A stretch of DNA of 64,000 nt from Candidatus Poriferisocius sp. (GCF_965202595.1 NZ_OZ241836.1:215095-279094), one strand, 5' to 3'. Numbered from the stretch's first letter, positions 14,516-63,524 are shown. Program-made: numbers and translations. Notes: generated by a model from the sequence alone, not told the origin.

Positions 14516-14648
14516 ATGACGCGGCCTGGTGGTGTTGATCTGTGGGGTTGTCGATGACGCGGCCTGGTGGTGTTGATGTGTGGGGTTGTCGATGACGCGG
14601 CCTGGTGGTGTTGATGTGTGGGGTTGTCGATGACGCGGCCTGGTGGTG
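14516..14648 (+). repeat. 38-bp tandem repeat (3 full units plus a partial one) encoding three ATGA-chained 13-codon mini-ORFs that lead into the next gene
   Basis: Mini-ORFs at 14516-14557, 14554-14595 and 14592-14633 (MTRPGGVD[L/V]WGCR*). Each stop overlaps the next ATG. The last ATG, at 14630, starts the downstream gene (MTRPGGDTGG...). Confidence 0.9.
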
Positions 14649-15118
14649 ATACCGGCGGCAATTTGGCGCTGACGGTTGAGGAGTTGGCTGCGCTGGGGTC
14701 GGCCATCGACGCGTGGCTGGACGATCAGCTCCGAACCAATCCGACCGTGTTGACGGTGGACCGGGGGGAACCCGGCCGGCACCGCTGGTACGTGCGGATG
14801 GTGGGGGAGGAGAAGGCGGTGTCAACCGTGTGGTTCACTCTCGGCCAACGCCAGTTGCACTGCGAGTGCTACTTCATGCCCGCCCCCGAGGAGAACGAGG
14901 GCCAACTGTACGAGTACCTGCTGCGCCGCAATCGTGATCTGGCCGGGTTGCGGTTCGCCATCGGTGTCGAGGATGCCGTGTTCCTGGTTACCGAGTTGCC
15001 GGTCCACGCGGTGACCGAGGCCGAGATGGATCGCATTCTGGGTTCGTTCTACGCCTACGTGGAGAGGTGGTTCCGTCCCTGCATGCGCATCGGCTACGAG
15101 TCACGGTTCAACCCTTAA
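14630..15118 (+). CDS. YbjN-like conserved hypothetical protein (the gene usually found next to mshA in actinobacteria)
   Basis: Track ORF 14618..15118; ATG 14630 is preferred. The family call rests on my recollection of the mshA neighbourhood and on sequence style only. Confidence 0.5.
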   Translation: MTRPGGDTGGNLALTVEELAALGSAIDAWLDDQLRTNPTVLTVDRGEPGRHRWYVRMVGEEKAVSTVWFTLGQRQLHCECYFMPAPEENEGQLYEYLLRRNRDLAGLRFAIGVEDAVFLVTELPVHAVTEAEMDRILGSFYAYVERWFRPCMRIGYESRFNP

Positions 15119-15127
15119 CATCTTTAG

Positions 15128-15156
15128 TTGATTTTCATGTATTTTCAGTATACAAT
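15128..15156 (+). promoter_or_regulatory. Candidate sigma-70-type promoter inside a ~55-bp AT-rich patch upstream of proC
   Basis: TTGATT (15128-15133), 17 nt spacer, TACAAT (15151-15156). The patch stands out in otherwise GC-rich DNA. Confidence 0.4.
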
Positions 15157-15234
15157 GATTATTCCTGGCCGGTGGGGGGATCGGGGAAGTCCTCCTGCCG
15201 GCCACTGTTACGGCTTGGGGATTTTTAAGTCCTG

Positions 15235-16501: not shown

Positions 16502-17389
16502 TTGATACCGCCTCGGGGCACTGGCGCAGCCTTGCGCTACGACACCGTCTCGTTCTTGTCCGATTACGGGCTGGGTGATGAATTCGTCGGGGTGGTGAAG
16601 TCGGTCATCCGGTCTCTGGCTCCCGAGGTGGTGGTGGTGGACATCACCCATGACATTGCTCCTCACGATGTCAGGGCCGGGGGCCTGGCCCTGGCTCGCA
16701 GCGCCCAGTACCTGGTACCCGGGGTGGTGCTGGCCGTGGTCGATCCCGGAGTGGGGGGCAAGCGGCGGGCCGTGGCGGTGGAAGTGGGAGGCGGAACCTC
16801 GGTGCTGGTCGGCCCCGACAACGGCCTGCTGGCCCCGGCGGTGGCCATGGTCGGGGGAGCGACCCGAGTGGTGGAGCTGACCGCCGAGAAATACCACCTT
16901 CGCTCTCCCGGCCCTACATTCGCGGGCCGCGACGTGTTCGCTCCGGTGGCCGCCCACCTGTGTTCGGGGGTCGGGCTCGAAGACGTGGGCACGCCGATCC
17001 CTATGCACTCCCTGACTCCGGGAGTCGTGCCGGTGAGCCGTACCGGCGGCGACCGGATCGATGCCGAGGTGCTTTGGATCGATCGATTCGGGAACTTGCA
17101 GCTCAACCTCGACCCCTCCGACATCGACCCTATGGGTGATGTGCTGAGGATCACCGCGGGCGGTGTGGGTCGCAACGCCCGCCGGGTCAACTGCTTCAGC
17201 GATGTGAGCACTGGTGATCTGGGGATACTGGTAGACTCCTACGGGTTGGCGGCCGTTGCGGTCAACCGAGGTTCGGCAGCGATGGAGTTGAACTGCAAGG
17301 AGGGTGACTCCATCATCGTCGAATCGGGGGAGTCCGCTTTGGCCACCCCGGTGCAACTTCAACCCAGACCCCCGGAGGTGCCGGCATGA
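16502..17389 (+). CDS. SAM hydroxide adenosyltransferase / SAM hydrolase family (DUF62)
   Basis: VSFLSDYGLGDEFVGVVKSVI, PGVVLAVVDPGVG, LVGPDNGLL and IDRFGNL match the fluorinase/chlorinase-like family. Confidence 0.75.
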   Translation: MIPPRGTGAALRYDTVSFLSDYGLGDEFVGVVKSVIRSLAPEVVVVDITHDIAPHDVRAGGLALARSAQYLVPGVVLAVVDPGVGGKRRAVAVEVGGGTSVLVGPDNGLLAPAVAMVGGATRVVELTAEKYHLRSPGPTFAGRDVFAPVAAHLCSGVGLEDVGTPIPMHSLTPGVVPVSRTGGDRIDAEVLWIDRFGNLQLNLDPSDIDPMGDVLRITAGGVGRNARRVNCFSDVSTGDLGILVDSYGLAAVAVNRGSAAMELNCKEGDSIIVESGESALATPVQLQPRPPEVPA

Positions 17390-17484
17390 GACCGGGAACC
17401 ACCATCGCTATCGCCGTGCCATGAGACCGGGAACCACCATCGTCATCGCCGTGCCATGAGACCGGGAACCACCATCGTCATCGC
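17386..17484 (+). repeat. 35-bp tandem repeat (2 units plus a partial one) encoding two ATGA-chained 12-codon mini-ORFs
   Basis: Mini-ORFs 17386-17424 (MRPGTTIAIAVP*) and 17421-17459 (MRPGTTIVIAVP*). The first ATG overlaps the upstream gene's stop (ATGA at 17386-17389). The last stop overlaps ATG 17456. Confidence 0.9.
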
Positions 17485-17545
17485 TGTTTTGCTGCTGGCC
17501 ATCCTGGTGGCGGCGGCGGTCCAATTGTTCGTGCTGGCTCGCTGA
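17456..17545 (+). CDS. 29-aa hydrophobic micro-protein
   Basis: MRPGTTIVIAVLLLAILVAAAVQLFVLAR*: a single predicted TM helix. It is the terminal member of the repeat chain and too short for the ORF track. Confidence 0.4.
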   Translation: MRPGTTIVIAVLLLAILVAAAVQLFVLAR

Positions 17546-19459: not shown

Positions 19460-20434
19460 ATGCTGCGCGCCGCCACCCGAGGCAGCGCCTTGGCCCGCTG
19501 GCAAGCAGCCCACGTAGCCGATCTGCTGGGCGATGCCATCGACGTTCAACTGCTTGTTGTGACCACAACCGGCGACCGGCGAGCCGGCGAGCCCATATCG
19601 TCCATCGGCGGCAAGGGGGTGTTCGTCAAGGAGGTGCAGGCCGCGGTGCTGGACGGGCGGGCCGACCTGGCCGTCCACTCGGCCAAGGACCTGCCCGCCA
19701 CCACCCCCGATGGTCTGGTGGTGGCTGCGGTGCCCCCCCGGGCCGATCCTCGGGACGCGCTGGTGGGCAGCCGGTTGGACGACCTTCCCCCCAAAGGGTT
19801 GGTGGCCACCGGCTCGGCCCGCCGCCGGGTTCAGCTCCGCCGGCTCCGCCCCGATCTGCGGTTCGCCGAGTTGCGGGGCAACATTGACACCCGGCTGGCC
19901 AAGGTGCCCGACTACCACGCAGTGATCATGGCCAAAGCCGCCCTGGACCGGCTGGGCGAGCATCCGAGCGTTGTGGCGGCGCTGGGTCGGCGGGGCGAGC
20001 AACCGAGCGTTGTGGCCGCCCTGGAGCGGCTGGGCGAGCAACCGAACGTTGTGGATGTGTTGGGTCGGCGGCGCGAGCAGCCGGCCATCGTGGATGTGTT
20101 GGACTGCGAGGTTATGGTTCCTCAGGTGGGTCAAGGGGCCCTGGCGGTGGAGTGCCGGGAGGGCGATGATCGGGTCCGCTCCCTTCTGGCCGCCATCGAG
20201 GATCCAATGGCCCGGCGAGCGGTGGACGCCGAGCGGGCCTTTCTGTCCACCCTGGGCGGTGATTGCACCTTGCCCGCGGGAGCCCACGCCCGGATACTCG
20301 ACAACCGGGTGGTGATGCGGGCCGTGCTGGCCGGCGGTGTGGACGGCCGCTGCCACACCATGGTTGACGAGGGCAGCGACGGTGAATCCCTGGGCCAAGA
20401 CTTGGCCCGCCGGTTGCTTGCCGCGGCCCGATGA
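19460..20434 (+). CDS. hemC: Hydroxymethylbilane synthase (porphobilinogen deaminase) with a 39-bp x4 in-frame insertion
   Basis: LRAATRGSALARWQA, GKGVFVKE, RGNIDTRL and PQVGQGALAVECR motifs. ATG 19460 is preferred over the maximal ORF start at 19412. Confidence 0.9.
   Translation: MLRAATRGSALARWQAAHVADLLGDAIDVQLLVVTTTGDRRAGEPISSIGGKGVFVKEVQAAVLDGRADLAVHSAKDLPATTPDGLVVAAVPPRADPRDALVGSRLDDLPPKGLVATGSARRRVQLRRLRPDLRFAELRGNIDTRLAKVPDYHAVIMAKAALDRLGEHPSVVAALGRRGEQPSVVAALERLGEQPNVVDVLGRRREQPAIVDVLDCEVMVPQVGQGALAVECREGDDRVRSLLAAIEDPMARRAVDAERAFLSTLGGDCTLPAGAHARILDNRVVMRAVLAGGVDGRCHTMVDEGSDGESLGQDLARRLLAAAR
19955..20110 (+). repeat. In-frame 39-bp (13-aa) tandem repeat x4 inside hemC
   Basis: ggcgagca[t/a]ccgagcgttgtgg at 19955, 19994 and 20033, with a degenerate copy at 20072. 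Protein: GEHPSVVAALGRR GEQPSVVAALERL GEQPNVVDVLGRR REQPAIVDVLD. Confidence 0.9.
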
Positions 20435-20662
20435 CCGTTTATCCACGATGGCAGGGTTGATGGGCATGGCGTTGAACACTCGCCGGTTGCTTGCTGCGGC
20501 CCGATGACCGTTTATCCACGATGGCAGGGTTGATGGGCATGGCGTTGAACACTCGCCGGTTGCTTGCTGCGGCCCGATGACCGTTTATCCACGATGGCAG
20601 GGTTGATGGGCATGGCGTTGAACACCCGCCGGTTGCTTGCTGCGGCCCGATGACCGTTTACC
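20408..20662 (+). repeat. 73-bp tandem repeat (3 units plus a partial one) of the hemC-stop/cobA-start junction, encoding six chained mini-ORFs
   Basis: cgccggttgcttgc at 20408, 20481, 20554 and 20627. Mini-ORFs: 20431-20460, 20460-20507, 20504-20533, 20533-20580, 20577-20606, 20606-20653. They alternate between 9 aa (MTVYPRWQG) and 15 aa (MGMALNTRRLLAAAR), linked by ATGA and TGATG overlaps. Confidence 0.9.
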
Positions 20663-22170
20663 TGGTTGGTGCCGGGCCGGGCGATCCCGACCTTTTGACC
20701 CTGAGGGGGGCCGAGGTGTTGGCCGGTGCCGATGTGGTTGTGTACGACCGGCTCTCGGCCCCCTCGCTGCTGGATTTGGTTCCCGATGGGGCCGAGCGCG
20801 TATCAGTGGGCAAAACCCCCGGCGGTCCCCGCACTTCGCAGGAGGACATCAACGCCCTGTTGGTGGATCGGGGCCGAGCCGGCCGGCAAGTGGTGCGGCT
20901 CAAGGGGGGCGACCCTTTCGTGTTTGCTCGCGGTGGCGAGGAGGCCGCGGCGCTGGCTGCCGCGGGGGTTGCCTTTGAGATCGTGCCCGGTGTTACTGCC
21001 GCGGTGGCCGTTCCCGCCTATGCCGGGATCCCCGTGACCATGCGCTACTCCTCCACCTCCCTAACCGTGGTTACCGGTCACGAGGATCCGGCCAAGGGTG
21101 ATGTGTCGGGTGATGGGGAGGATCCGGCCAAAAGCGATGTGTCGGGTGATGGGGAGGACCTGGCCAAAAATGATGGGTCGGTCAATTGGGAAGCGGTGGC
21201 TGCTTTGGGGGGCACGGTTGTGGTGCTCATGGGGGCGGCTCGCTGCCGCGCCATCTGCGATCGGCTCATAGCGGCGGGCTTGGCCGCCGACACCCCGGCG
21301 GCTGCCGTTCAGTGGGGCACTCGCCCGGACCAGCGCACGCTACGAGCCACGGTGGGGACTCTGGCCGGTTTGAGCCCCGAACCGCCGAGCACCATTGTGA
21401 TCGGCGAGGTGGCAGCGGTGGATCTGGCCTGGTTCGAGAACCGGCCGCTGTTCGGGCGGCGCATCGTGGTGACCCGAGCCCAACCTCGGGCCTCGGCCCT
21501 GGCCGCTGAGCTGCGGCGGCGGGGAGCGGAAACCGTGGAGTTGCCGACCATCGCCTTCGAACCTCCCGACGACCTCGACCTCATGGCCCGGGCCGCGGCT
21601 CAGGTCGGTGGCTACGACTGGGTTGTGTTCACCTCGCCCACCGGGGTGGCCCGGTTCCTGGAGCAGCTTCGAGATGCTCGCGACCTGGGCGGGGTGCAGG
21701 TGGCAGCCATCGGGCCGGGGACGGCGGCCGCGCTGGCCGAGCGCAACGTCATTGCCGATCTGGTTCCGGGCCGGTTCGTGGCCGAGGCTCTGCTGGAGGC
21801 CATGCCCCGCGGGCCGGGACGGGTGCTCATCCCCCGAGCCGAGACCGCCCGCGACGTGCTGCCCGAGGGTTTGGCCGCCGCGGGTTGGGATGTGGATGTG
21901 GTTCCCGTGTACCGCACGGTGGCCCCGCCCCCCGATCCCACCGCCCCCGCCCGGCTGGCCGGGGCCGAGGTCATCACCTTCACCTCGTCCTCCACGGTGA
22001 CCAACTTCGTGGATATCCACGGCACCGGCGGGGTGCCCCCGGTGGTGGCCACCATTGGGCCGATTACCACCGCCACTGCCCGCAACCGGGGCCTGGAGGT
22101 AGCAGTGGAGGCCACCGAGCACACCATCGCCGGTTTGGTGGCCGCTCTGGAGGATTTCTTCACCCGCTGA
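20650..22170 (+). CDS. Fused uroporphyrinogen-III C-methyltransferase / uroporphyrinogen-III synthase
   Basis: N-terminal VYLVGAGPGDPDLLTLRG...VVRLKGGDPFVF (CobA/SUMT). The C-terminal half from about residue 270 is HemD-like (RIVVTR...VVFTSPTGV...ITFTSSSTV). Contains an in-frame 36-bp x2.8 repeat at 21082-21180. Confidence 0.9.
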   Translation: MTVYLVGAGPGDPDLLTLRGAEVLAGADVVVYDRLSAPSLLDLVPDGAERVSVGKTPGGPRTSQEDINALLVDRGRAGRQVVRLKGGDPFVFARGGEEAAALAAAGVAFEIVPGVTAAVAVPAYAGIPVTMRYSSTSLTVVTGHEDPAKGDVSGDGEDPAKSDVSGDGEDLAKNDGSVNWEAVAALGGTVVVLMGAARCRAICDRLIAAGLAADTPAAAVQWGTRPDQRTLRATVGTLAGLSPEPPSTIVIGEVAAVDLAWFENRPLFGRRIVVTRAQPRASALAAELRRRGAETVELPTIAFEPPDDLDLMARAAAQVGGYDWVVFTSPTGVARFLEQLRDARDLGGVQVAAIGPGTAAALAERNVIADLVPGRFVAEALLEAMPRGPGRVLIPRAETARDVLPEGLAAAGWDVDVVPVYRTVAPPPDPTAPARLAGAEVITFTSSSTVTNFVDIHGTGGVPPVVATIGPITTATARNRGLEVAVEATEHTIAGLVAALEDFFTR

Positions 22171-22280
22171 GAGGCGGCGGTTCCACCGGGGGCATTCGGA
22201 TTTCTTCGCCCGCTGAGATCCAATGGCTTTTCCCGCTCCTCACCGGGGGCGCTCGGATTTCTTTGCCCGCTGATATCCAA
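22151..22280 (+). repeat. The 3' end and stop of cobA/hemD is present three times (spacings 46 and 57 bp)
   Basis: ggatttctt[c/t][a/g]cccgctga at 22152, 22198 and 22255. The longer unit, caccgggggc..tcggatttctt.gcccgctga.atccaa, occurs at 22184 and 22241. Confidence 0.8.
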
Positions 22281-22339
22281 CCTTTCCGGGGCTTGCTCGC
22301 TGGTTGGCTGGGCCGATTTGAGTTCTAGGATCAGCCGGT

Positions 22340-23587
22340 ATGGCCACCAACCGGGATTTGTTCGAGCGGGCGCAGAGGGTCATTCCCGGGGGGGTCAACT
22401 CGCCGGTGCGCTCGTTCCGGTCGGTGGGGGGGACTCCCTACTTCGTGGCCCGGGCCGAGGGACCCTATGTGTGGGATGTGGAGGGGAACCGCTACATCGA
22501 CTACGTGCAGAGCTATGGCCCCGGCATTTTGGGCCATACCCATCCGGCGGTGACCGCGGCGATCGCCGAAGCGGCCGCGGGCGGTACCAGCTACGGGGCC
22601 CCCACCGAGCGCGAGGTGGTGCTGGCCGAGCTGCTGTGCGACCGGGTTCCCGGTTTGGCATGGACAAGGCTCACTTGCAGCGGTACCGAGGCGGCCATGG
22701 CTGCCGTCAGGCTGGCCCGGGGGGCAACCGGTCGCAGCAAGATCATCAAATTCGCCGGCTGCTACCACGGTCACAGCGACGCTCTTTTGGCGGCGGGGGG
22801 CAGCGGGGTGGCCAATCAGGGACTGGCCGGCTCGGCCGGGGTGACTCCCGGGGCGGTGGCCGACACCGTGGTGGCTCCTTACAACGAGATTCCCGAGATG
22901 GATGCCGAGGTGGCCGCAGTGCTGGTGGAACCGGTGGCGGCCAACATGGGGGTGGTGGCTCCGGCCCCCGGCTTTCTGGAGGGTTTGCGGGCGGCCTGTG
23001 ACCGATCCGGGGCCCTCCTGGTGTTCGATGAGGTGATAACCGGTTTCCGGCTGGCCCCCGGGGGGGCCACCGAGTGGTTCGGGGTCATCCCCGACCTGTG
23101 GTGCTTTGGCAAGGTGGTGGGGGGCGGCCTGCCCATCGGCGTTTTCGGGGGGCGATCCGAGCTGATGGACCACCTGGCCCCACTGGGTGGGGTGTACCAG
23201 GCCGGGACTCTGTCGGGGAACCCGCTGGCCACCGCGGCCGGTCTGGCCACGCTCGAGCTTTTGACCCCCGATGCCTACCGCACACTGGCCGGCACCGCCG
23301 CTCGGCTGGCCACTGGACTGGTGGCCGCTGCTGCTGCCGCCGGCGTGGCCTGCACGGTGCCCCGGGTGGGGTCGCTGCTCGGCCTGTTCTTCTGCGAGGA
23401 ACCCCCCTCGAACTTCGATCAGGCTCGGGCCGCCGCCGAGAACGGCATTTACCCCCGAGTGTTCCATGCCCTCCTGGATGCCGGCGTGTCGTTCGCCCCC
23501 GGCCCCTACGAGGCCCTGTTTCCAAGCCTGGCCCACACCGGTTCTCACTTAGATGCCACTGTTGAGGCTTTCGCGGCTGCTTTGTAG
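22340..23587 (+). CDS. hemL: Glutamate-1-semialdehyde 2,1-aminomutase
   Basis: RAQRVIPGGVNSPVRSF, YGP.ILGH, FDEVITGFR and GKVVGGGLPIG are canonical HemL motifs. Confidence 0.95.
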   Translation: MATNRDLFERAQRVIPGGVNSPVRSFRSVGGTPYFVARAEGPYVWDVEGNRYIDYVQSYGPGILGHTHPAVTAAIAEAAAGGTSYGAPTEREVVLAELLCDRVPGLAWTRLTCSGTEAAMAAVRLARGATGRSKIIKFAGCYHGHSDALLAAGGSGVANQGLAGSAGVTPGAVADTVVAPYNEIPEMDAEVAAVLVEPVAANMGVVAPAPGFLEGLRAACDRSGALLVFDEVITGFRLAPGGATEWFGVIPDLWCFGKVVGGGLPIGVFGGRSELMDHLAPLGGVYQAGTLSGNPLATAAGLATLELLTPDAYRTLAGTAARLATGLVAAAAAAGVACTVPRVGSLLGLFFCEEPPSNFDQARAAAENGIYPRVFHALLDAGVSFAPGPYEALFPSLAHTGSHLDATVEAFAAAL

Positions 23588-24789
23588 ATGTACTCGGCTG
23601 TTTTGGGGTTGTCGGGATCCATGAGGTTGGCCATGATGCGCAGGGCCCACTCCATGATCGGCCGGGATTGCATGCCGATCCGGGTTAGTTCCCGCAGCAG
23701 CGCCGGTTTGCCGATGAGCCGGGCAAACAGGCGGGCCACCCGAAAGTAATCCCCGTAGCATTCGTCCAGCAGGTTCGGGTACCGCCAGATCACCCCGCCG
23801 TCACCGGTGGCCAGGGCCTCGGCCACCAGATCGGCGGCCATCCGACCCGTCTCGTAGGCGTAGTCGATGCCCTCACCGTTGAACGGGTTGACCGACCCGG
23901 CCGCGTCCCCCACCACCAGGTGGTTGGGCCCCACCTTGGGGTTGACCGACCCGGCCATGGGCAGGCGCCCCCCCACCGGGTCCATCAGCGGCCGGTTGGG
24001 GTCGATCTCCCAGTGGGCGGGCAGGGTGGCCGCGAACTCCCGCATCAAGTGGGAGGTGTTGACCGAGGTGTAGTCACGAAACGTGGACAGCAGACCCACG
24101 CCCACGTTCACGCTCCCGTCGCCCACGGGGAAGATCCAGCCGTATCCCGGCAGTGAATTGCCGTTGCGGTCCCGCACATCCAGGGCGCTCTCGATCCAGG
24201 GGGTGTCGTGGAGCGGGCTCTCGAAGTATGTGCGGATGGCCATGCCCTGGGGGTAGGTCCGGTCCCGGGCCGTTCCCAGGGCCCGGCCGAACCGGGAGTT
24301 GGCCCCGTCGGCGACCACCACATAGCGGGCCCGTACCCGGTCGGTGCCGCCCGTTATGGTGTTCTTCACCTCGACCCCGTCCAGCAGCCCGTTGACCAGC
24401 AGCGGTCGGGTGGCTTCAACCCCGAGCCGGAGTTCGGCCCCCCCGGCTACCGCGTGGTCGGCCACCAGTTGGTCGAGCTCCCGCCTCCGCACCACATAGC
24501 CGTAGTCGGGGAATACCGGGTGGCGGGGCCAGGCCAATTCCATGGTCCGGCCATGGGCCACCGCCCGCAAACCCCGGTAACGGTGGTAGCGGATCATCCG
24601 GTGACCCAAACCCATGTCGTTCAGCGCCTTTACCGCCCGGGGGGTGAGTCCATCGCCGCACGTTTTGTCACGGGGGAACTGCTTGCGCTCCACCACCACC
24701 ACGTCCAGCCCGTGCCGGGCCGCCCAGTAGGCCGTGGCGGCTCCGGCCGGGCCACCGCCGACGACCAGAAGGTCGCGGGAAGTGGTCAG
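23545..24789 (-). CDS. Geranylgeranyl reductase family FAD-dependent oxidoreductase
   Basis: DLLVVGGGPAGAATAYWAARHG dinucleotide fold, RDKTCGDGLTPRA and GDAAGSVNPFNGEGI. No ATG or GTG lies near the fold. The start is inferred as CTG 24789, overlapping a TGA. The maximal ORF (to 24915) would overlap the upstream gene by about 100 nt. Confidence 0.75.
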   Translation of the reverse strand: MTTSRDLLVVGGGPAGAATAYWAARHGLDVVVVERKQFPRDKTCGDGLTPRAVKALNDMGLGHRMIRYHRYRGLRAVAHGRTMELAWPRHPVFPDYGYVVRRRELDQLVADHAVAGGAELRLGVEATRPLLVNGLLDGVEVKNTITGGTDRVRARYVVVADGANSRFGRALGTARDRTYPQGMAIRTYFESPLHDTPWIESALDVRDRNGNSLPGYGWIFPVGDGSVNVGVGLLSTFRDYTSVNTSHLMREFAATLPAHWEIDPNRPLMDPVGGRLPMAGSVNPKVGPNHLVVGDAAGSVNPFNGEGIDYAYETGRMAADLVAEALATGDGGVIWRYPNLLDECYGDYFRVARLFARLIGKPALLRELTRIGMQSRPIMEWALRIMANLMDPDNPKTAEYIYKAAAKASTVASK

Positions 24790-24829
24790 TTCTCCCCCAG
24801 AAGGTCGCGGGAAGTGGTCAGTTCTCCCC
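24765..24829 (-). repeat. 32-bp tandem duplication of the cytochrome-c-stop / reductase-start junction
   Basis: ccagaaggtcgcgggaagtggtcagttctccc at 24765 and 24797. On the minus strand this gives an 11-codon ORF (CTG 24821 to TGA 24786: LTTSRDLLGEN*) between the two genes. Confidence 0.8.
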
Positions 24830-53555: not shown

Positions 53556-53556
53556 A

Positions 53557-54396: not shown

Positions 54397-54529
54397 TGCT
54401 GGTATTGTGTCAGACAGGAGTGACAGTTTTGCATTTTACCTGGTCAGATGTGATTTTGTTCATATTTGGTATAAACCTATAATAGGCCGAGCGGAGTAAG
54501 TCAAGAAGAAATACGCTGGGACAATCCTG

Positions 54530-54609
54530 GACCGCCCGGCCCTCCACGGTACGAGCCGCGGCCACCAGGGCCTGGCCGGCCACTTGACCGCCGAACACCC
54601 GCTGGCGCA
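54530..54609 (-). pseudogene. Orphan 80-bp fragment of tesB (codons ~31-57); right copy of the direct repeat bounding islet 2
   Basis: Encodes RQRVFGGQVAGQALVAAARTVEGRAVQ, versus RQRVFGGQVAGQALVAAARTVESRAVH in tesB. Homology stops abruptly on both sides. Confidence 0.8.
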
Positions 54610-54692
54610 CCAGCGTCGGCGCCGGGTGGTGGGGTGGGGCTGGCTTCGCCTACCCTCGGTTCAGGGGGTCTGGGCTACGCTTTCCTTCTCCC

Positions 54693-55322
54693 ATGTCGCT
54701 TCTTGTTTCGGCCCGCGCCCACTTGGTGGACTACAGGCACCGCCTGCTGCGTTACGGCGGGGCATCGGCGGTGGGGGTGGTGTTGGGGCAGACCATCCTG
54801 CGAGTGTGCTACGACCTGCTGGGATGGTCGGCGTTGGTGGCCAACCTGGTGGCGTTCCTTATAGCCAACATCCCCGTGTACCACCTGAACCGGTCATGGG
54901 TGTGGGACCGATCGGGTCCCAGTAGCTGGAGGCGCGAGGTGCTGCCCTTCTGGCTGGTTTCCTTCGCGGGGCTGGCCCTGTCGTCGCTTGCCGTGGGTTT
55001 GATCGACCGGGTGACCGGCAACGGCTGGTTGATCACCGTGGCATCGGTGGGGGCGTTCGGCACGGTATGGCTGGTGAAGTACGCGGTGTGCGACCAGTAC
55101 CTGTTCGGCCCCCCAGGCCAAAGCGGCGACCATGACGGTCCCAATCGGGAGATGGCAGGGGATCACAACGATCCCAATCGGGAGATGGCTGGGGATCACG
55201 ACAGCTCCAATCGGGGAATGGCTGGGGATCACGACAGCTCCAACCGGGGGATGGCAGGGGATCACAACAGCTCCAATCGGGGAATGGCAGGCGATGGAGC
55301 CCGACCGGCGGGCGTTCGCTGA
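54693..55322 (+). CDS. GtrA-family membrane protein with a repeat-expanded C-terminal tail
   Basis: GASAVGVVLGQ, FLIANIPVYHLNRSWVW and VKYAVCDQYLF fit the GtrA pattern. The tail is GDH[DN]..NR[EG]MA x5. Confidence 0.75.
   Translation: MSLLVSARAHLVDYRHRLLRYGGASAVGVVLGQTILRVCYDLLGWSALVANLVAFLIANIPVYHLNRSWVWDRSGPSSWRREVLPFWLVSFAGLALSSLAVGLIDRVTGNGWLITVASVGAFGTVWLVKYAVCDQYLFGPPGQSGDHDGPNREMAGDHNDPNREMAGDHDSSNRGMAGDHDSSNRGMAGDHNSSNRGMAGDGARPAGVR
55125..55295 (+). repeat. In-frame 33-bp tandem repeat x5 at the GtrA 3' end, abutting the next gene's start
   Basis: Units encode GDHDGPNREMA, GDHNDPNREMA, GDHDSSNRGMA, GDHDSSNRGMA and GDHNSSNRGMA. Confidence 0.9.
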
Positions 55323-55923
55323 GGCCGCCCGGGGTTTCATGCCCCCCGACGAGGGGTTGGCTCTGAACCGGGCCGCGTGCGGCCTGGGCGTGGATGGGCC
55401 GCTTTTGGAGGTGGGCAGCTATTGCGGCAAGTCCTCGGTCTATTTGGGTGATGCCGCCCAGTCCCAGGGGCGGCTGCTTTTCGCTCTGGATCATCACCGG
55501 GGATCGGAGGAGAACCAGCCCGGTTGGGAGTGGCACGAGCCCGACCTGGTGGACCCCGAGGTGGGCCTGATCGACACCCTGCCCCATTTCCGCCGCACTG
55601 TTAACCGGGCCGGGCTGGAGCCGTGGGTGGTGGCGGTGGTGGGTGACTCGGTGACCATCGCCCGGAACTGGTCCACCCCGCTGGCCTTTCTGTTCATCGA
55701 CGGCGGTCACGGCCCCGAGCCGGCCCACGCCGACTACGAGAACTGGGTGCCCCACGTGGCCATCGGGGGCCGGTTGGCCATCCACGATGTGTTTCCCGAT
55801 CCCGCCGACGGTGGCCGCCCGCCCTACGAGATCTACTGCCGGGCCATGGACTCGGGAGCGTTCACCGAACTGGCCGCCACCGGCTCGCTGCGGATACTCA
55901 CCCGCCACGCCCCCGGAATCTGA
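55294..55923 (+). CDS. Class I SAM-dependent methyltransferase (Methyltransf_24-like)
   Basis: LLEVGSYCGKSSVYL and FLFIDGGH motifs. The start is set at ATG 55294. The longer track ORF from 55132 only reads the GtrA repeat in another frame. Confidence 0.7.
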   Translation: MEPDRRAFAEAARGFMPPDEGLALNRAACGLGVDGPLLEVGSYCGKSSVYLGDAAQSQGRLLFALDHHRGSEENQPGWEWHEPDLVDPEVGLIDTLPHFRRTVNRAGLEPWVVAVVGDSVTIARNWSTPLAFLFIDGGHGPEPAHADYENWVPHVAIGGRLAIHDVFPDPADGGRPPYEIYCRAMDSGAFTELAATGSLRILTRHAPGI

Positions 55924-55980
55924 CCGGGTTCGAGGGATGAACCTCCCAGGCCGGTCCCAGACTTCAACCCAACGCCTTTA

Positions 55981-57255
55981 GTGCACAGTGCCGAGCCAGT
56001 GGTTGGCCGGGTTCGTTACGGTGACAGGCGTACCTGGTTATCCGCTTGTGGCCCGGTTCGTTACGGTGATGGGGTGGACAATGAGGAGAGGCTGGCATCG
56101 GGCGAGGCGTGGAGGGAGTTCTGCGAACGGCTCAAAGCGTCGGGTGACCGCCTGCTGGGCCCTGACTTCCCCGGCGGGGCGAGGGAGCGAGCCGAGGGGT
56201 ACCGCCACCTGAGCCGGCTTCTCATGCAGGGGTTGCTGGAGCAGGTGGAGATGAGCGATCGGGACTTTCCGGTCATGTACCGTCACAACGACGACATCAT
56301 GCGTTGGGGTGGGCCCAACGTGGACAACACCTACTGGCGGGCTCCTGTCAGCGCTCAACACACCTACCGGGTCACCGGTTGGCTGCCACCGGGGGCGCTG
56401 TTCGTGATTCAGAGCGCCCACGGTGAGATGCACCAGAACCGGCCGGGCATATGCGCCGAGCGTTCCAACGACGACTTCGCCGTGGACCCCGATGGCAGCT
56501 TCACCTTCGTGGTCAGCTCCGCTCCTCATGACGGCAACTGGCTTCCCATCGACGAGGATACCGATCGCATCTCCATACGGGAGTACAACGTTGAATGGGG
56601 TGCTGCCCAACCGGGCCGGTTCTTCATCGAGCGGGTGGGCAATGAGGGTGGGCATCCCGCACCCCTGAATCCTGCCGGTTTCGTCGGTGCCCTGGACCGA
56701 GCCATGACCTGGGCCGACGACGCTCTGGTGTTCTGGAACCGGTGGATGGATCAAAGCCGCGGATCCGCGCCGCCCAACGTGTTCTACGGCCCGCGCTCGG
56801 TACCGGGCGGGGCCGCCGCCATCGGCTACGGCGGTTGTTCCTACCAGTTGGCTCCCGACGAGGCCATGATCGTGACCTGCGACATACCCCAGGCCCGGTA
56901 CTGGTCGTTCATGATCTACAGCTACGCCTGGTTCGAGTCGCTGGACTTCGCCAACCGCACGGTCAGCCTGAACAACGCCCAGATTGCCACCGACCCCGAC
57001 GGCCGTTTCCGGCTGGTGGTGGCCCACACAGACCCCGGTGTGCAGAATTGGCTCGATACCGAGGCCCGCCCCGAAGCCCTAATTTCCTTCCGCTGGGTGC
57101 AAAGCACCACCATGCCCACTCCCGAGGCCCAGGTAGTCCCCTTCTCCCAGCTAGGCCAATATCTACCCGATTTCATCACCCGAACCACCCCCGCCCAACG
57201 CATCGACCAAATAAACCTCCGTCGCCACTCCCGAGCCCTCCGCTTCCGCTGCTAA
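55981..57255 (+). CDS. Conserved hypothetical protein (DUF1214-like, from memory)
   Basis: 424-aa maximal ORF with host-like codon bias. GTG 56074 is a plausible start. A 45-bp duplication (ggcc.ggttcgttacggtga at 56005 and 56050) lies at the 5' end. Confidence 0.45.
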   Translation: MHSAEPVVGRVRYGDRRTWLSACGPVRYGDGVDNEERLASGEAWREFCERLKASGDRLLGPDFPGGARERAEGYRHLSRLLMQGLLEQVEMSDRDFPVMYRHNDDIMRWGGPNVDNTYWRAPVSAQHTYRVTGWLPPGALFVIQSAHGEMHQNRPGICAERSNDDFAVDPDGSFTFVVSSAPHDGNWLPIDEDTDRISIREYNVEWGAAQPGRFFIERVGNEGGHPAPLNPAGFVGALDRAMTWADDALVFWNRWMDQSRGSAPPNVFYGPRSVPGGAAAIGYGGCSYQLAPDEAMIVTCDIPQARYWSFMIYSYAWFESLDFANRTVSLNNAQIATDPDGRFRLVVAHTDPGVQNWLDTEARPEALISFRWVQSTTMPTPEAQVVPFSQLGQYLPDFITRTTPAQRIDQINLRRHSRALRFRC

Positions 57256-58600
57256 TCCTATAGTTGTTCTCTGAGCACTCGAAGAAGGCGGTCATGCTCT
57301 GTATCCAAAAGTTCCTTTTGTGCTTCAAATTCTTCCAGTGCCTCAAAAAACTCTTTAACCATCTCTCTCTGGTTATCAATGGGTATAACTGGAATGGGAA
57401 TACATTCAATATGTTTTTTGTAAATGTGAGGCTGCCCTGTCCCTTGTTGTCTACTGTAAATTTCATTTTGGCGGCTTTTTACGCAAGCATAAAGGTATCC
57501 AGTTAGAAATTTAAATTCATCCCTACTATATACTACAATACTATCTGATGCCCATATAGGCCCACTGTGCCACCAAACATAGCATGAGTAGGCACCGCTC
57601 TTGCTTATAGTAAAGCAATTTCCGCGGTGTGTAAAATTTTTGTGGTTGTACGGACTGGACCCACCGCCAGCAATAACAGGTATATTTCCTGGGAGTATCT
57701 CCTGCTTTGTGATTGATTTCCCATTCTCTAAATAAGCAACATTTTTTAGTAATACATAGTCGACACTTTCAGGAACAGGCCATAGTGAATTGGTTAGTGC
57801 AGCAAACACGTTTTTCATGTTACGGGTTTTGACGACAGAGACTGAGCGATTCATATCCTCAGGAATCGGGTCAGGTTCATCCTGGTATGATAACTGCCAT
57901 ACTTCCTCCTTCTGACAAAGAGTTGAAACACCGTAGCAAACAGGCTTCATCAGCGTCCTTCGCATCACTGTCAACCAGGCGAATCTCACCCCTGCTGAGA
58001 CTTTGGGAAAATGGAATGTTGGAGAAGACAACTTGGAATTTGTTCTCTGGAGGGTTGTTTATGCTGTTAATTTGAGTCACACCTGAGTGGCCATCTCCGA
58101 ACAGAATCATATTCATTTTCGCTATTCGTGCGTTGCTAGTTATTTCTTGCCCAAATATGGTTTTGGTTTGAAGAATCTCTATATCCCGAGGTGACCTCCC
58201 AGCTTTGAAGCTAAGGTGTTTGTATGATTCTACTAGAAATCCACCTGTGCCACAGAAGAGATCGAATACTGTCTGCCTAAACTCTGGATCAACAAGTTTT
58301 ACCATAAATCGGACAATATGTCTGGGTGTGAAGTATTCACCAAGGTCATTCTGAATGGTTGTACGCTGAATAAAATGCTCAAATGCAACTCCTTTTATGT
58401 CTTCATCAACACTTGACAAACTTAAAGGGTTCAATTCTAATATAATTTTCTTTAGTACTTTTCCATCCTTAATTTTGGTTTCAGAAATAACCTCACTAGC
58501 ACCGTATCGACATCTGCGACAGTTACCCCTGAACCACAAAACACCAGGTCAGAAGGGGTGTCTTTAGCGCCGTACATAAGTCGTGTTCTGGTCAGATCAA
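57256..58600. other. AT-rich islet 3 (about 1.3 kb) between two convergent host genes
   Basis: A sharp compositional switch follows the stop at 57255. The right edge is fuzzier, around 58550-58660. Confidence 0.7.
57258..58539 (-). pseudogene. Decayed Type I/IIG-like methyltransferase-specificity (M-S) gene: frameshifted and truncated
   Basis: ORF 57877..58539 has the YFTPRHIVRFMV, DLFCGTGGFL and SNIPFS N6-MTase motifs, but lacks the N-terminal domain and ends early. The overlapping ORF 57258..58031, in another frame, encodes one HsdS-type TRD plus a conserved helix. A further frame break lies near 58540-58590. Confidence 0.7.
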
Positions 58601-60483: not shown

Positions 60484-60647
60484 CTGCTGTCCAGCAGTAC
60501 CCGGTAGTGCTCCGCTGGGGAGGAGGGCCGTATTCTCACCGTCACGCGTGCCATTCGTTGAGCAGTACCCGGTAGTGCTCCGCTGGGGATGCGGTTTGGG
60601 TTCTCACCGTCACGCGTGCCATTCGTTGAGCAGTACCCGGTAGTGCT
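60477..60647 (-). repeat. 68-bp tandem repeat (2 units plus a partial one) of the GT4-stop / methyltransferase-start junction, with two chained mini-ORFs
   Basis: The tca (stop) recurs at 60610 and 60542. Minus-strand mini-ORFs: 60613-60542 (VTVRTQTASPAEHYRVLLNEWHA*) and 60545-60477 (VTVRIRPSSPAEHYRVLLDSRC*). They are GTGA-chained, and the last overlaps the methyltransferase GTG by 7 nt. Confidence 0.85.
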
Positions 60648-61869
60648 CAACGGTCTTTTCCGCAGTGTGGTGCCAACTCCAGCGGCTCCTCACCCGTTCC
60701 CGCCCGGCTTGGCCTATCCGAGCGGCCATGGCCGGATTGTCCAGAATCCGAACGAGCGCCCCGGCCAATGCCTCGCTGTCTGCGGGGGGCACCAGCAGGC
60801 AGGTCTCGCCGCTGGTGCCGGCCACCTCGGGCAGCGCCCCGCCGGTGGTGGCCACCAGCGGTGTGGCGCTGGACATGGTTTCGATGGCCGGCAGCGAGAA
60901 CCCCTCGTACAGCGAGGGCACCACTGCCACTGAGCTGGTGGCGTACAGCTCCACAATGCGGTCATCGGGCACCCCCGACACGAACTCCACCACCTCGCCC
61001 AGTCCCAGGCTGTTGATGGTGGAGGAGGATGCACCCCCCTCGCGGGGTTTTCCGATCACGATCAGCCGCACATCCCGCTCGGTGCGCAACTTGGCCACCG
61101 CCTCCAGCAGGTAGCGCAGGCCCTTCATGGGCACATCCGCGCTGGCGGTGGTGATGATCTGCCCCGGCCGGCGGTCCACGCCGGGAAGCGGGCGGAACAG
61201 CTCGGTATCCACCCCCACCGGTACCACATGCATCCGGCCATGGGGTACCCGCTGGTCCCGGGCTATGTCGTCGAGGGACGACTCCGACACGGTGATGATG
61301 CGCCGCAAGCGGCGGGCCACCCGGGCCTGCATCCGGATGAAGGAGTACCAGCGTCGCTTGCCGAAACGATCCATCATCCCCCGGGCGTGCTCGAGCTCCA
61401 GTTGGCGGTCCACGGTGATGGGATGGTGGATGGTGGCCAGTACCGGTAGCCCGTCCCGCTCCATGCCCAAAAGCCCGTAGCCCAATGACTGGTTGTCGTG
61501 CACGATATCGAATTCCCCGGCTCGGGAGCGCAGTGCCTGCCAGGCCCGGAGCGAGAAGGCCAGCGGTTCGGAGAAGGCTCCGGTCATGAACGAGCCCACC
61601 TCGGCGGCATCGGCCCACGATTTGATCTCCCAGAATCCGGGTAACCGGCCCGGGTAGGCATCGTTGAAGATATCCAGGCTGGGAAGCCGGTGAAGCGGTA
61701 CCCGAGGGTCCAGAACCGGGTAGGGCTGCCCGCTCAGCACCTCCACGTGGTGCCCCAGATCGGTCAGCGCCCGACTCAGGTGATGGACGTACACGCCCTG
61801 GCCCCCGCAATGGGGTTTGCCCCGGTACGAAAGCAGGGCAATCCTGAGGGATCGATCCTCCGGGGCCAT
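60610..61869 (-). CDS. GT4-family glycosyltransferase
   Basis: IALLSYRGKPHCGGQGVYVHHLSRAL, and PSLYEGFSLPAIETMSSATPLV (EX7E region). Confidence 0.85.
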   Translation of the reverse strand: MAPEDRSLRIALLSYRGKPHCGGQGVYVHHLSRALTDLGHHVEVLSGQPYPVLDPRVPLHRLPSLDIFNDAYPGRLPGFWEIKSWADAAEVGSFMTGAFSEPLAFSLRAWQALRSRAGEFDIVHDNQSLGYGLLGMERDGLPVLATIHHPITVDRQLELEHARGMMDRFGKRRWYSFIRMQARVARRLRRIITVSESSLDDIARDQRVPHGRMHVVPVGVDTELFRPLPGVDRRPGQIITTASADVPMKGLRYLLEAVAKLRTERDVRLIVIGKPREGGASSSTINSLGLGEVVEFVSGVPDDRIVELYATSSVAVVPSLYEGFSLPAIETMSSATPLVATTGGALPEVAGTSGETCLLVPPADSEALAGALVRILDNPAMAARIGQAGRERVRSRWSWHHTAEKTVEHYRVLLNEWHA

Positions 61870-61875
61870 GACCTA

Positions 61876-61981
61876 CAAGGTTCTCGGAATCAGGTTGGTT
61901 GGGTCAAATATCAGTTGTTGAGGGGTTTGGTGGAGCAGGTGGGCAAGGTTCTCGGAATCAGGTTGGTTGGGTCAAATATCA
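61876..61981 (-). repeat. 68-bp duplication of the lnt 3' end/stop region upstream of the GT4 gene
   Basis: caaggttctcggaatcaggttggttgggtcaaatatcag at 61876 and 61944. Confidence 0.85.
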
Positions 61982-63456
61982 GGCTTTGGGGGTTTGGGGG
62001 TTATGGTTCGCGAGCGGAAAGCCCAGGCGGCAACCCCGATTGCCAGGGCCAGGGCAACCATGGGCCAGGGGCCGGCTCGGGTGGCGAGGGTTTGGCCGGT
62101 CCGCAGCTCGACGGGAGCTTGGATCACTGCTTGTTCGGAAACGCCGGTGCGCTGGTAAACGTTTCCGCCGGGGTCCACGAACGCGCTGAAACCGGTTGGA
62201 GATGCCTGCGCCACCCACCGCCCCGTCTCCAGGGCCCGCAACCGGGAGCTGGCAACCTGCTGGGTCTGCACGATGGTGAGCCAGTAGCTGGACCCGTTGG
62301 TGGGGTTCAACAGCACCTCACCACCGTTGCCGATGGCATCCCGAGCCCGATCCTCGAAGAAGACCTCCCAGCTTATTGATACCCCCAGGCGACCCGCGGG
62401 GGTGTCCAGCACCGCGGGGGCGTTCCCCCGCCGCATGTCCTGGGCCGGTAGGTAGTCGGGGGCCAGCGGCTCGATGAGCCACCGCAGCGGCACGTACTCC
62501 CCGAACGGCACCAGCCGCACCTTGTCGTAGCGGCCCGCCGGGGTTCCCTCAGGGGTGAACACCGCAACGAAGTTGGCTCCTGCGCCGCCGGGCAGGTCTT
62601 CGATCACCCCGGCCACCAGGGTGGTGTTCAGTTCCTGGGCCAGCTCGGCCAACCGTTGCTGCTGGGGGCTGGCGGCGAACAGGCCCTGCACGTCCACCAC
62701 GTCCTCGGGCCACACCACCAGATCCACCGGTGGTTGCACCAGTTGGCTGGCTTCCCAGTGCCGTTCGAACACCACGGCCGGGTCGGTGTTCGCGGCTCGG
62801 GTCCGCTGGGGTCCTCCCCCCTGCACCAGGGCCACGTCGATGGTGCCGAGCGCCGAACCCTGGGGGGCTACCGCGGCCCAGCCCCAGAATCCCACCACCA
62901 CCACCGCCAGAACCAGTGCGGTCTGCCAATGGCGGTGCAAAGCTGCGGCCACAACCATGGCCACCGCTACCGCCACCCCCACCAGTAGCAACGGGCCCAG
63001 CACCCGAACGGTGATGGCCCATGGGCTGTCCACCTGGCTCATGGGCAGGGTGGACAGTGGCACCCCGCCGAAGGGCCACCGCCACCGTATCGCTCCGGCC
63101 AGCACGAACAGGCCGGGCAGGGCAACCCACCGGCCGATCCCCGGTGGGCAAGCCACCCCCACCGAGCCGTAAAGAATCGAGAACACCACGCCAACGGCCA
63201 GGTAACCGGGAAGGGTGAAATCGACCATCCACAATGTGGAGGGAAACAACCAGCCGGCCCCGAATCCCAACCCCCGCCAGGCCCGGGCCCATAAGGGTTG
63301 ATCGGCCAGCAGGCGCTCCAGAACCACCAGCGCCACCAGCGCGAGGGGCCACCATCCCCAGGGTGGCATCGACAGGGCAACCAGTCCCCCAGCCCCCAAG
63401 GAGCCCACCGCCGGCACCCCGCTGGTGCGAGCCCAAAGCCCGGGTGCGAAGTTCAC
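61972..63456 (-). CDS. lnt: Apolipoprotein N-acyltransferase
   Basis: N-terminal polytopic membrane domain plus a C-terminal CN-hydrolase domain (VVWPED..., FGEYVP, ISWEVFF). GTG start at 63456. Confidence 0.8.
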   Translation of the reverse strand: MNFAPGLWARTSGVPAVGSLGAGGLVALSMPPWGWWPLALVALVVLERLLADQPLWARAWRGLGFGAGWLFPSTLWMVDFTLPGYLAVGVVFSILYGSVGVACPPGIGRWVALPGLFVLAGAIRWRWPFGGVPLSTLPMSQVDSPWAITVRVLGPLLLVGVAVAVAMVVAAALHRHWQTALVLAVVVVGFWGWAAVAPQGSALGTIDVALVQGGGPQRTRAANTDPAVVFERHWEASQLVQPPVDLVVWPEDVVDVQGLFAASPQQQRLAELAQELNTTLVAGVIEDLPGGAGANFVAVFTPEGTPAGRYDKVRLVPFGEYVPLRWLIEPLAPDYLPAQDMRRGNAPAVLDTPAGRLGVSISWEVFFEDRARDAIGNGGEVLLNPTNGSSYWLTIVQTQQVASSRLRALETGRWVAQASPTGFSAFVDPGGNVYQRTGVSEQAVIQAPVELRTGQTLATRAGPWPMVALALAIGVAAWAFRSRTITPKPPKPDI

Positions 63457-63524
63457 TGGTATCTCATTGCCACGGGCATCTCATCGCCACTGGCATCTCA
63501 TCGCCGCGGGTATCTCATCGCCAA
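63453..63524 (-). repeat. 17-bp tandem repeat x4 encoding four ATGA-chained 4-6-codon mini-ORFs, ending on the lnt GTG
   Basis: tcat at 63464, 63481, 63498 and 63515; tcac at 63453. Minus-strand ORFs, verified base by base: MRYPRR* (63518-63498), MRCQWR* (63501-63481), MRCPWQ* (63484-63464), MRYQ* (63467-63453). Confidence 0.9.

Follow-up and report, generated by a model that had tools for sequence, protein, structure and literature searches.

Intercistronic junction duplications bridged by chains of small open reading frames in a sponge-associated Candidatus Poriferisocius

Results

The stretch of DNA analysed here (the window: 64,000 nt, NZ_OZ241836.1:215095-279094) comes from Candidatus Poriferisocius, a sponge-associated actinobacterium of the Acidimicrobiales. 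On its + strand, Pfam matches define a run of genes for a GT4 glycosyltransferase, YbjN, proC and an S-adenosylmethionine (SAM) hydroxide adenosyltransferase (SAM_HAT). These are followed by sirC-like, hemA, hemC, cobA-hemD and hemL genes, a split cytochrome b/Rieske/cytochrome c cluster and then nuoA-N. Towards the 3' end, the - strand carries genes for glycosyltransferases and methyltransferases. At about 13 of the roughly 27 co-directional junctions in the window, the segment joining one gene to the next is present in two or more copies, and where the copied segment includes the downstream start codon the extra copies nearly always form small open reading frames (mini-ORFs) that lead from stop to start in an unbroken chain. 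The arrays occur in hem, cytochrome bc, nuo and glycosyltransferase operons, between co-directional genes and with the mini-ORFs in the direction of translation, which is also the location of mycobacterial interspersed repetitive units (MIRUs).

Relatives of NuoH and NuoI are found in sponge and coral Acidimicrobiales (Candidatus Poriferisocius and the Sva0996 group) at 90-94% amino-acid identity, and a metagenome scan found no close relatives. NuoI, NuoJ and NuoK of the window are RefSeq WP_419918979/80/81 of Candidatus Poriferisocius sp., where the mini-ORFs are unannotated.

A period scan for self-matches at offsets of 10-250 nt across the 64 kb, with which Tandem Repeats Finder and a repeat search agree, recovered 37 near-tandem repeat clusters, against 0, 1 and 0 in three shuffles. 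When each cluster is required to contain an exact match of 16 nt or more at the same offsets, the density is 4.7 per 10 kb, about 14-fold above the 0.34 per 10 kb of 2.17 Mb of nuo-region loci from other Acidimicrobiia; by this count the closest relatives (L001-L004 and L161-L163) have 0-1 clusters each. Chance is excluded by the excess over shuffles, the density relative to these loci and the number of intact chains.

The periods of the 37 clusters are strongly structured: 21 are 0 mod 3, 14 are 2 mod 3 and only 2 are 1 mod 3. Inside genes every unit is a multiple of 3 (33 bp three times in the nuoA tail, 33/66 bp at the nuoD N-terminus, 18 bp five times in the nuoF tail, 39 bp in proC and hemC, 36 bp in cobA-hemD and 33 bp repeated 4.7 times in a GtrA tail), and repeats in convergent or divergent intergenic regions have units of 19, 15 and 36 bp. 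Among the arrays that copy the downstream start codon, 14 of 15 translate into an unbroken chain of mini-ORFs linked by ATGA, TGATG or GTGA. Taking the chance of an intact chain as about 1/3, the binomial tail for 14/15 is, by our own arithmetic, 31/3^15, or about 2e-6.

What the arrays obey is not a 2 mod 3 period as such: an ORF that begins at a copied start codon ends at the next copy. A stop and start that overlap as ATGA or TGATG require a period of 2 mod 3; a stop and start in the same frame require 0 mod 3, and the 66-bp array between the cytochrome c gene and the next gene fits this. One start-containing unit with a 1 mod 3 period (73 bp) is rescued by an internal TGATG, which splits it into two ORFs. 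Read directly from the translated chains, the ends of the small ORFs overlap the flanking stop and start as those of MIRUs do, and a strict relay was detected computationally at nuoG/H, H/I, J/K and K/L.

Most arrays are not clean tandem repeats but amount to 1.5-1.9 "copies" in the order J-spacer-J, with two or more junction copies (J) of 18-48 nt that are 97-100% identical and spacers of 17-54 nt. Most J copies retain the upstream sequence that bears the Shine-Dalgarno region. Plain head-to-tail duplication is seen in the window only at nuoK/L and at 24765. The arrays are listed below, with peptides given up to the stop codon.

14516-14648, + strand: GT4/YbjN junction, 38 bp repeated 3.5 times; three mini-ORFs, MTRPGGVD(L/V)WGCR, with ATGA links leading into YbjN, which starts at 14630. 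The first begins with an ATG 11 nt past the GT4 stop (a short gap, no overlap).
17385-17489, + strand: stop of SAM_HAT, 35 bp repeated 2.9 times; two mini-ORFs, MRPGTTI(A/V)IAVP, lead via ATGA into a 29-aa peptide gene.
20408-20660, + strand: hemC/cobA-hemD, 73 bp repeated 3.5 times (J 34 nt, spacer 39 nt); the unit is MTVYPRWQG, TGATG, MGMALNTRRLLAAAR, ATGA, next unit.
22153-22290, + strand: hemD-hemL spacer, with a 57-bp repeat at 22184; the hemD 3' end in three copies, GGATTTCTT.GCCCGCTGA, period 0 mod 3, no start codon copied.
24765-24829, - strand: cytochrome c/geranylgeranyl-reductase-like gene, plain duplication of 32 bp (two copies); no canonical start codon within the repeat.
29464-29573, + strand: Rieske/cytochrome c, 74-bp J(36)-spacer(38)-J; a 24-codon mini-ORF, TGATG to TGATG.
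30895-30994, + strand: cytochrome c/next gene, 66-bp J(34)-spacer(32)-J; stop and start in the same frame, 6 nt apart, chain kept.
32571-32667, + strand: C-terminal tail of NuoA (in-frame class), 33 bp repeated 2.9 times; relatives lack the repeat.
33741-33842, 37027-37120, 38897-38973 and 55141-55295: other repeats of the in-frame class.
39746-39845, + strand: nuoG/H, 50-bp period; mini-ORF MTADPAAVVTDVRIRTR, ATGA to ATGA. The DNA actually inserted is 59 nt long and consists of a junction copy of 45 nt and a further 14 nt.
41038-41130, + strand: nuoH/I, 56-bp J(37)-spacer(19)-J; mini-ORF MGYLEFTRWWLDPQGGFA, TGATG to TGATG, overlapping the nuoH stop and the nuoI ATG.
41757-41826, + strand: nuoI/J, 44-bp J(26)-spacer(18)-J; mini-ORF METAVRKAHGGGHH.
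42357-42461, + strand: nuoJ/K, 71-bp J(34)-spacer(37)-J; a 23-codon mini-ORF.
42732-42845, + strand: nuoK/L, plain tandem duplication of 38 bp (three copies); two mini-ORFs, MS(M/T)LVDAEGLVGT, ending in ATGA. The first ATG mini-ORF begins 7 nt after the nuoK TAG, and each spacer is bridged by a 3-codon GTG ORF (TAGTG...ATGA).
44686-44795, + strand: nuoL/M, 71-bp J(39)-spacer(32)-J; its mini-ORF has 23 codons and runs from one TGATG to the next.
51724-51813, - strand: thioesterase/GSDH, 72-bp J(18)-spacer(54)-J, sharing the frame of the downstream ORF; relay status ambiguous.
60493-60648, - strand: glycosyltransferase/methyltransferase, 68 bp repeated 2.3 times; ORFs run from an internal ATG 8 nt before each stop, the last ends 4 nt inside the GTG start, and an 11-12-nt patch differs between units.
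61876-61982, - strand: copy of the 3' end of an Lnt-like gene, 68-bp J(39)-spacer(29)-J, within an intergenic spacer about 100 nt long; repeat without a start codon.
63461-63523, - strand: upstream of the Lnt-like gene, 17 bp repeated 3.7 times; four mini-ORFs of 4-6 codons linked by ATGA, then GTGA to the start at 63456. A short gap separates the upstream stop from the first mini-ORF start.

The original prediction, made from the sequence of the window, had named twelve units of 2 mod 3 length (38, 35, 32, 74, 50, 56, 44, 71, 38, 71, 68 and 17 bp), and all are present, at the positions listed above. So are its 73-bp two-ORF unit (at 20408), the arrays at six consecutive nuo junctions (G/H to L/M), the in-gene units of 18, 33, 36 and 39 bp, all multiples of 3, and the non-bridging intergenic units of 15, 19 and 36 bp, which lie at convergent or divergent sites. 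Two units said to keep the original spacing or frame fared differently: the 66-bp unit at 30895 does so, and the 72-bp unit at 51724 is an in-frame N-terminal repeat whose status is ambiguous. The unbroken chains it described hold for 14 of the 15 start-containing arrays; the 32-bp array, the 68-bp array at 60493 and the 72-bp array are less clean.

Some arrays touch the genes beside them. The gene at 17456-17545, between the SAM_HAT and sirC-like genes, is apparently real and encodes a 29-aa hydrophobic peptide (MRPGTTIVIAVLLLAILVAAAVQLFVLAR); its start is a unit of the 35-bp array. In the geranylgeranyl-reductase-like gene (23545-24915, - strand) the ancestral frame has no ATG, GTG or TTG for more than 60 codons upstream of the flavin adenine dinucleotide motif, and the 32-bp duplication puts the ATG at 24915 in the reductase frame; by implication the gene either starts at a CTG or has gained an overlap of 98 nt with the gene for cytochrome c. 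The nuoG/H insertion changed the N-terminus of NuoH (39787-39870), now MNVAPALLGP against the ancestral MTA(V/L)LGP of relatives, showing that a junction duplication is able to remodel the end of a protein. An ARAGORN call of tRNA-Arg(ACG) within nuoH (40881-40975) is unsupported by Rfam and is probably a false positive.

Comparison with relatives shows that the arrays of the window are insertions: seven aligned relatives have single junctions at Rieske/cytochrome c (a single J in L002 and L003), cytochrome c/next gene, nuoG/H, I/J and J/K, and some of the seven have a single junction at H/I, K/L and L/M. Relatives carry bridging inserts of their own at the same or other junctions. L002 has a plain 62-bp tandem duplication at nuoH/I, now 84% identical and ending in TAATG; L001 and L002 share a 62-nt insert at nuoL/M running from TGATG to TAATG; and L003 has a 47-nt bridging insert at nuoK/L. 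A 44-nt insert at nuoK/L of L162 is absent from the 96.5%-identical L161 and is one of two internal indels of at least 4 nt between them. Inserts also persist. At nuoA/B of L161-163, a 41-nt insert (ATGA to ATGA) is constant in length across species with an interior about 35% diverged, and H/I inserts are kept across Microthrix-like genomes.

The same frame rule is seen, independently, across the class. We mapped the 14 Nuo proteins on 164 loci (window included) and measured stop-to-start distances, whose modes are -1 (ATGA, 224 cases) and +2 (TGATG, 361 cases). Gaps of at least 23 nt outside the window were counted at junctions D/E, G/H, H/I, J/K and K/L (n=58); B/C, E/F, I/J and L/M were excluded because their N-termini are not placeable by automated gap analysis. 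By a lenient definition of the relay, 43 of the 58 gaps are bridged, against 10 and 12 after deletion of 1 or 2 nt mid-gap. An exact overlap of the ATGA/TGATG type at every link is found in 29/58, against 1 and 3 in the frame-shifted controls (Fisher p = 6e-13). The bridging ORFs have 10-112 codons and are unrelated in sequence between lineages. Relays built from repeats occur sporadically elsewhere, at nuoI/J of L037 (17 bp, five copies), in L096 (14-bp TAATG units), L156 (53 bp), L072 (110 bp), L032 (53 bp, with GTGA) and L085 (146 bp). The window is thus an extreme instance of a more general phenomenon.

A second assembly of the same strain from a different sample (L164; a 110-kb contig at 4x coverage, ENA ERZ26693861) is about 99.95% identical to window positions 32488-52743 except in one tract. 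Its arrays are identical at nuoG/H and L/M; K/L has three copies with two substitutions, J/K has one extra T, and no in-gene array has an indel of at least 4 nt. Since an independent assembly carries the same arrays and in-gene copy numbers, they are not assembly artefacts. Repeats collapsed or expanded, or haplotype bubbles linearised in tandem, during assembly or polishing could be imagined for a metagenome-derived genome, and nothing more specific speaks for such a source. Artefacts, however, would ignore the reading frame; the J lengths are variable and match no k-mer, and the same type of insert occurs in related genomes of other projects. We regard an artefact as extremely improbable.

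Copy number does not differ between the two assemblies of this one strain at about 10 arrays, which bears on an adaptive interpretation. If each extra termination-reinitiation step cut the flow of ribosomes to the downstream gene, the arrays could act as attenuators, with copy number as a selected and reversible dial of stoichiometry or polarity. Identical direct repeats of 26-48 nt would suit copy-number change, arrays of 3-4 copies exist, and relays are long-lived (H/I in Microthrix-like genomes, A/B in L161-163). Against this stand the constant copy number; the 1:1 need for complex I subunits, such that graded attenuation along nuoH-M has no obvious benefit; and the Shine-Dalgarno region in every copy, which may let de novo initiation bypass attenuation. 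In addition, unrelated operons and the interiors of genes contain arrays too, as a general mutational load predicts. An attenuator therefore seems to us improbable.

The one divergent tract (window ~40200-42300, L164 7700-9900), which covers the 3' part of nuoH, nuoI and nuoJ, differs by about 12% over about 2.1 kb; it is probably an import from a related lineage by homologous recombination, and L164 has frame-disrupting indels there. The tract spans the H/I and I/J arrays, and both are present in L164 with homologous spacers and decayed J copies. At H/I, the L164 spacer GGGAGGTTCGCCCGATGGGTG aligns with GAGTTCACCCGATGGTG of the window. The two J copies of L164 are only about 65% alike there, against 37/37 identity of J1 and J2 in the window; the first aligns with nuoI codons 5-9 (CAGAGGCTTTGCC), past the J boundary of the window, and the second keeps the ancestral nuoH end (AGCTCG..ATCCCCAAGG). 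From these alignments it follows that the H/I array began as a plain tandem duplication whose spacer is decayed flanking (nuoI) sequence, and that it predates the ~12% divergence. The H/I and I/J arrays are thus old with homogenised junction copies, not fresh duplications, because 37/37 identity in an old H/I array requires homogenisation rather than simple youth. Candidate processes are gene conversion, expansion and contraction (arrays of 3-4 copies exist), and refreshment by homologous recombination through long flanking homology. For the other arrays, it is possible that the spacer was present from birth.

The spacers themselves are 61% GC. Read as mini-ORFs, they have a GC content of 0.53 at third codon positions, compared with 0.89 in genes (nuoL), and they have no coding periodicity. 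Because the spacers look non-coding, the mini-ORF peptides themselves are not selected. An origin as fragments of this genome's coding DNA is disfavoured by the periodicity test (P=0.013). Every extra base is templated in adjacent sequence at nuoK/L, at 24765, in the three 33-bp copies of nuoA and at H/I of L002; for 10-12 arrays the template is undetectable, and at H/I only the diverged allele allows it to be recovered. Comparisons of spacers with their flanks stayed at chance level under a breakpoint model, by gapped local alignment against 200 nt on either side (both strands) and against J, and by anchored alignment (summed p=0.21). BLAST found no similarity of spacers to the rest of the window on either strand or to 2.36 Mb of related loci. 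A hint that the nuoL/M spacer was an antisense copy of nuoH failed against the window's own nuoH.

Several candidate elements were rejected. In an all-against-all alignment of 17 spacers, 4.4% of pairs reached p<=0.05, which is the null rate, and the 12 window spacers are mutually unrelated; together with the absence of a dispersed short repeat family in the window, this speaks against a dispersed spacer family. A structured RNA, or an element like repetitive extragenic palindromes or miniature inverted-repeat transposable elements, fails because folding is no better than in shuffles (mean z -0.16) and Rfam yields one tRNA only. Off-target integration of spacers in the manner of CRISPR would give one fixed ruler length, against J of 18-48 nt and spacers of 0-54 nt. 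J boundaries share no motif and no fixed position relative to the start codon, so site-specific cutting is not indicated. A post hoc count over 601 nt of spacers, from the arrays of the window and the inserts of relatives, gave 4 occurrences of the hexamer CGATGG where 0.4 would be expected. The hexamer supplies the mini-ORF start at H/I of L164, and may mark a decayed CGATGA junction core or alternative starts.

The J-spacer-J topology could also result from insertion of foreign or filler DNA with a long target duplication, by a MIRU-like mobile element or by end-joining of a staggered break; J would then be the target and the spacer the insert. The spacers without a template in flanks, window or related loci, and their non-coding look, agree with this. 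So does a kb-scale parallel in the window. Positions 52472-52551 and 54528-54607 form an 80-nt direct repeat (95% identical) around a 1976-nt low-GC Type II restriction-modification cassette (52552-54527) with an N6_N4_Mtase gene (52836-53555; N4/N6 DNA methylase) and an RE_TdeIII gene (53557-54396; TdeIII-like endonuclease). The first copy of the repeat lies inside an acyl-CoA thioesterase gene and the second is a relic fragment. The cassette looks like a documented class, "insertion with long target duplication" (PMC2853133), and this parallel keeps alive the view that some J-spacer-J arrays are target-duplicating insertions. Dispersed spacer families in other Acidimicrobiia point the same way (L085; L025/L123/L092). 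Other observations argue in the opposite direction: the 12 window spacers are related to one another at no more than the null rate; there is no hairpin or inverted-repeat signal, boundary motif or fixed length; the diverged allele reveals the H/I spacer as a decayed flank copy that aligns to nuoI; and spacerless plain duplications occur (K/L, 24765, H/I of L002). On balance we find such insertions unlikely as the general explanation.

In L085, the spacers at 11198-11346 (H/I) and about 12780-12920 (K/L) share one motif. The spacers of the G/H junctions of L025 and L123 and the D/E junction of L092 share another. An example of these dispersed motifs, whose spacers sit as bridging ORFs, is TCGCCCTCAYTCGKTCGCTTCGCTC..TCCGTTCGG. 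MIRU-like elements may exist in the class Acidimicrobiia.

Other features of the window lie apart from the junction arrays. Between the divergent genes for cytochrome c and a DUF4199-like protein, positions 25678-25750 hold a 15-bp repeat (4.9 copies, CAAGTATTCATCCCC), possibly an operator or promoter element in repeated form. At 11910-12055 (- strand), the last 20 nt of a tRNA-Lys(UUU) recur twice behind it as relics, spaced at 36 nt and separated by 16-nt spacers that are unrelated. The relics may be remnants of an attachment site or products of the same J-spacer-J process. Positions 3467-8776 encode very large secreted-type proteins in which fibronectin type III units recur some 8 or more times, with a period of roughly 280-300 nt, as is typical of the eukaryote-like repeat proteins of sponge symbionts. 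Directly after nuoN lies a low-GC (53-57%) island (47954-58539) with a 772-aa N6_Mtase plus specificity-domain gene, and with fragments of Type I M and S genes. Downstream of nuoN, L161-163 have genes for an sCache protein and a thiamine pyrophosphate enzyme instead of the island genes.

Discussion

The junction arrays are best understood as tolerated remains of frequent duplication on which a translational filter has acted. We think it likely that duplication combined with a translational frame filter explains them, with the logic of MIRUs but outside the MIRU family. The Candidatus Poriferisocius lineage would generate or retain short tandem duplications (17-75 bp) at an unusual rate, and reading-frame selection would decide which survive; within genes, only multiples of three would be kept, in tolerant tails and linkers. 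At a junction, a duplication would copy the downstream start codon with its Shine-Dalgarno region, and the copied start would be used. Ribosomes from that start would have to terminate at or just before the next start copy. Where the ORF ends at the next start, the ribosome would be handed on and the mRNA would stay covered. With any other period, ribosomes would cross the true start in the wrong frame, or a gap would stay untranslated; downstream expression would fall, through occlusion, lost coupling or possibly Rho polarity, and such alleles would be lost. The surviving bridging mini-ORFs would thereby maintain termination-reinitiation coupling and translation of the full message. Later, the interior of the extra copy may drift to an unrecognisable spacer while J stays identical by concerted evolution. 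Mini-ORF translation, a filter that acts through coupling or polarity, and the cause of the high duplication load are what we infer in this scheme.

Of the two alternatives in the original prediction, a coupling-preserving selection acting on frequent duplications is therefore the one favoured, by in-gene repeats that are exclusively in frame, by the chain-preserving junction periods, by the scarcity of 1 mod 3 clusters (2/37) and by the class-wide rule. Its statement that each array is built from its own junction can be seen at present for the junction copies, which are local, but not for the spacers, which lack a detectable template. The likeness it drew to MIRUs is apt in logic; membership in that family fails for want of a dispersed family here.

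Several points weigh against duplication with a frame filter. Translation of the mini-ORFs is a prediction from sequence. No similarity to flanks is detectable for 10-12 spacers, and an origin by plain duplication followed by decay has been shown only for H/I, is suggested for I/J and is directly visible at K/L and 24765. Identical J copies of 34-48 nt beside scrambled spacers need homogenisation as an added process. The 58-nt insert at nuoC/D of L002, which is 1 mod 3, violates the rule. The class-wide counts are phylogenetically non-independent, with about 35 distinct events estimated. Finally, six consecutive nuo junctions are hit, and tolerance is the only reason that we can offer.

It is tempting to speculate further, although we find the idea doubtful, that Acidimicrobiia obey a hard rule against untranslated intercistronic stretches. 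Junction modules (Shine-Dalgarno region, stop/start overlap and first codons) would be self-renewing coupling cassettes, duplicated and kept identical by gene conversion, that let the passing of ribosomes from one subunit gene to the next change heritably and reversibly. In this view MIRUs would be a special case of the general process, one that is mobile and has been domesticated.

The arrays amount to a natural experiment on translational coupling, in which dozens of independent inserts share only the passage of ribosomes between cistrons in a legal frame. The strength of selection on coupling, or against untranslated gaps and polarity, thus becomes measurable from genomes alone. The arrays also suggest a route by which MIRU-like intercistronic minisatellites may originate, through local junction duplications. 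They single out a lineage in which short duplications are unusually abundant and repeats of 30-40 nt are apparently homogenised, a point relevant to repair and recombination in uncultured symbionts. For annotation, many unannotated translated mini-ORFs are predicted, along with altered N-termini such as that of NuoH. The filter mechanism itself is intuitive; what was unexpected is how densely the arrays occur, the statistics across the class, and homogenised junction copies beside scrambled spacers.

Comparison with known systems

We found no description in the literature of relays made by junction duplication or of a class-wide rule of bridging ORFs between cistrons. As recounted in two sources (PMC12548453, PMC3184786), MIRUs (Supply et al. 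1997) are units of 40-100 bp, often tandem and intercistronic in operons, with a small ORF that overlaps stop and start at -4 spacing; their insertion is thought to affect downstream expression little. They are described there as a dispersed family with a shared consensus at about 40-50 loci per genome, considered mobile, with 4-nt direct repeats and imperfect terminal inverted repeats. The window shares with them units of tens of bp (here 17-74 bp), often in tandem, between co-directional operon genes of an actinobacterial host, with a small ORF overlapping by ATGA. Set against the MIRU as described, the arrays of the window differ in being built from their own junction with mutually unrelated spacers, and their flanking repeats are 18-48 nt long with no inverted repeat, excess folding or boundary motif.

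Coupling by termination and reinitiation at ATGA/TGATG overlaps is established (PMC6728339; PMC12548453), and short ORFs whose sole role may be delivery of ribosomes to the next gene have been noted in review (PMC12548453). The relay in the window uses exactly these overlap motifs. The known cases differ in that they are single gene pairs or leader ORFs, not 1-4 duplicated junction modules.

Insertion with long target duplication was reportedly described by Nobusato et al. in 2000. Its products have a direct repeat, an unrelated insert and a direct repeat, with repeats of more than 30 bp that are single-copy at the empty site, and it concerns kb-sized inserts of restriction-modification genes (Furuta, Abe and Kobayashi 2010, PMC2853133). 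The window likewise has repeats of more than 30 bp that are single-copy in relatives, at the Rieske/cytochrome c, cytochrome c/next gene, nuoG/H, J/K and L/M junctions. Its spacers, in contrast, are 17-54 nt long without restriction-modification genes, and at H/I the spacer is a decayed copy of the flank.

Minisatellites and variable number tandem repeats, which arise by slipped-strand mispairing, resemble the window in their head-to-tail copies, multi-copy expansion and in-frame units inside genes. The window departs from them in a density about 14-fold above that of relatives, in a strict and context-dependent rule for junction periods, and in junction-proximal copies that are perfect beside scrambled interiors.

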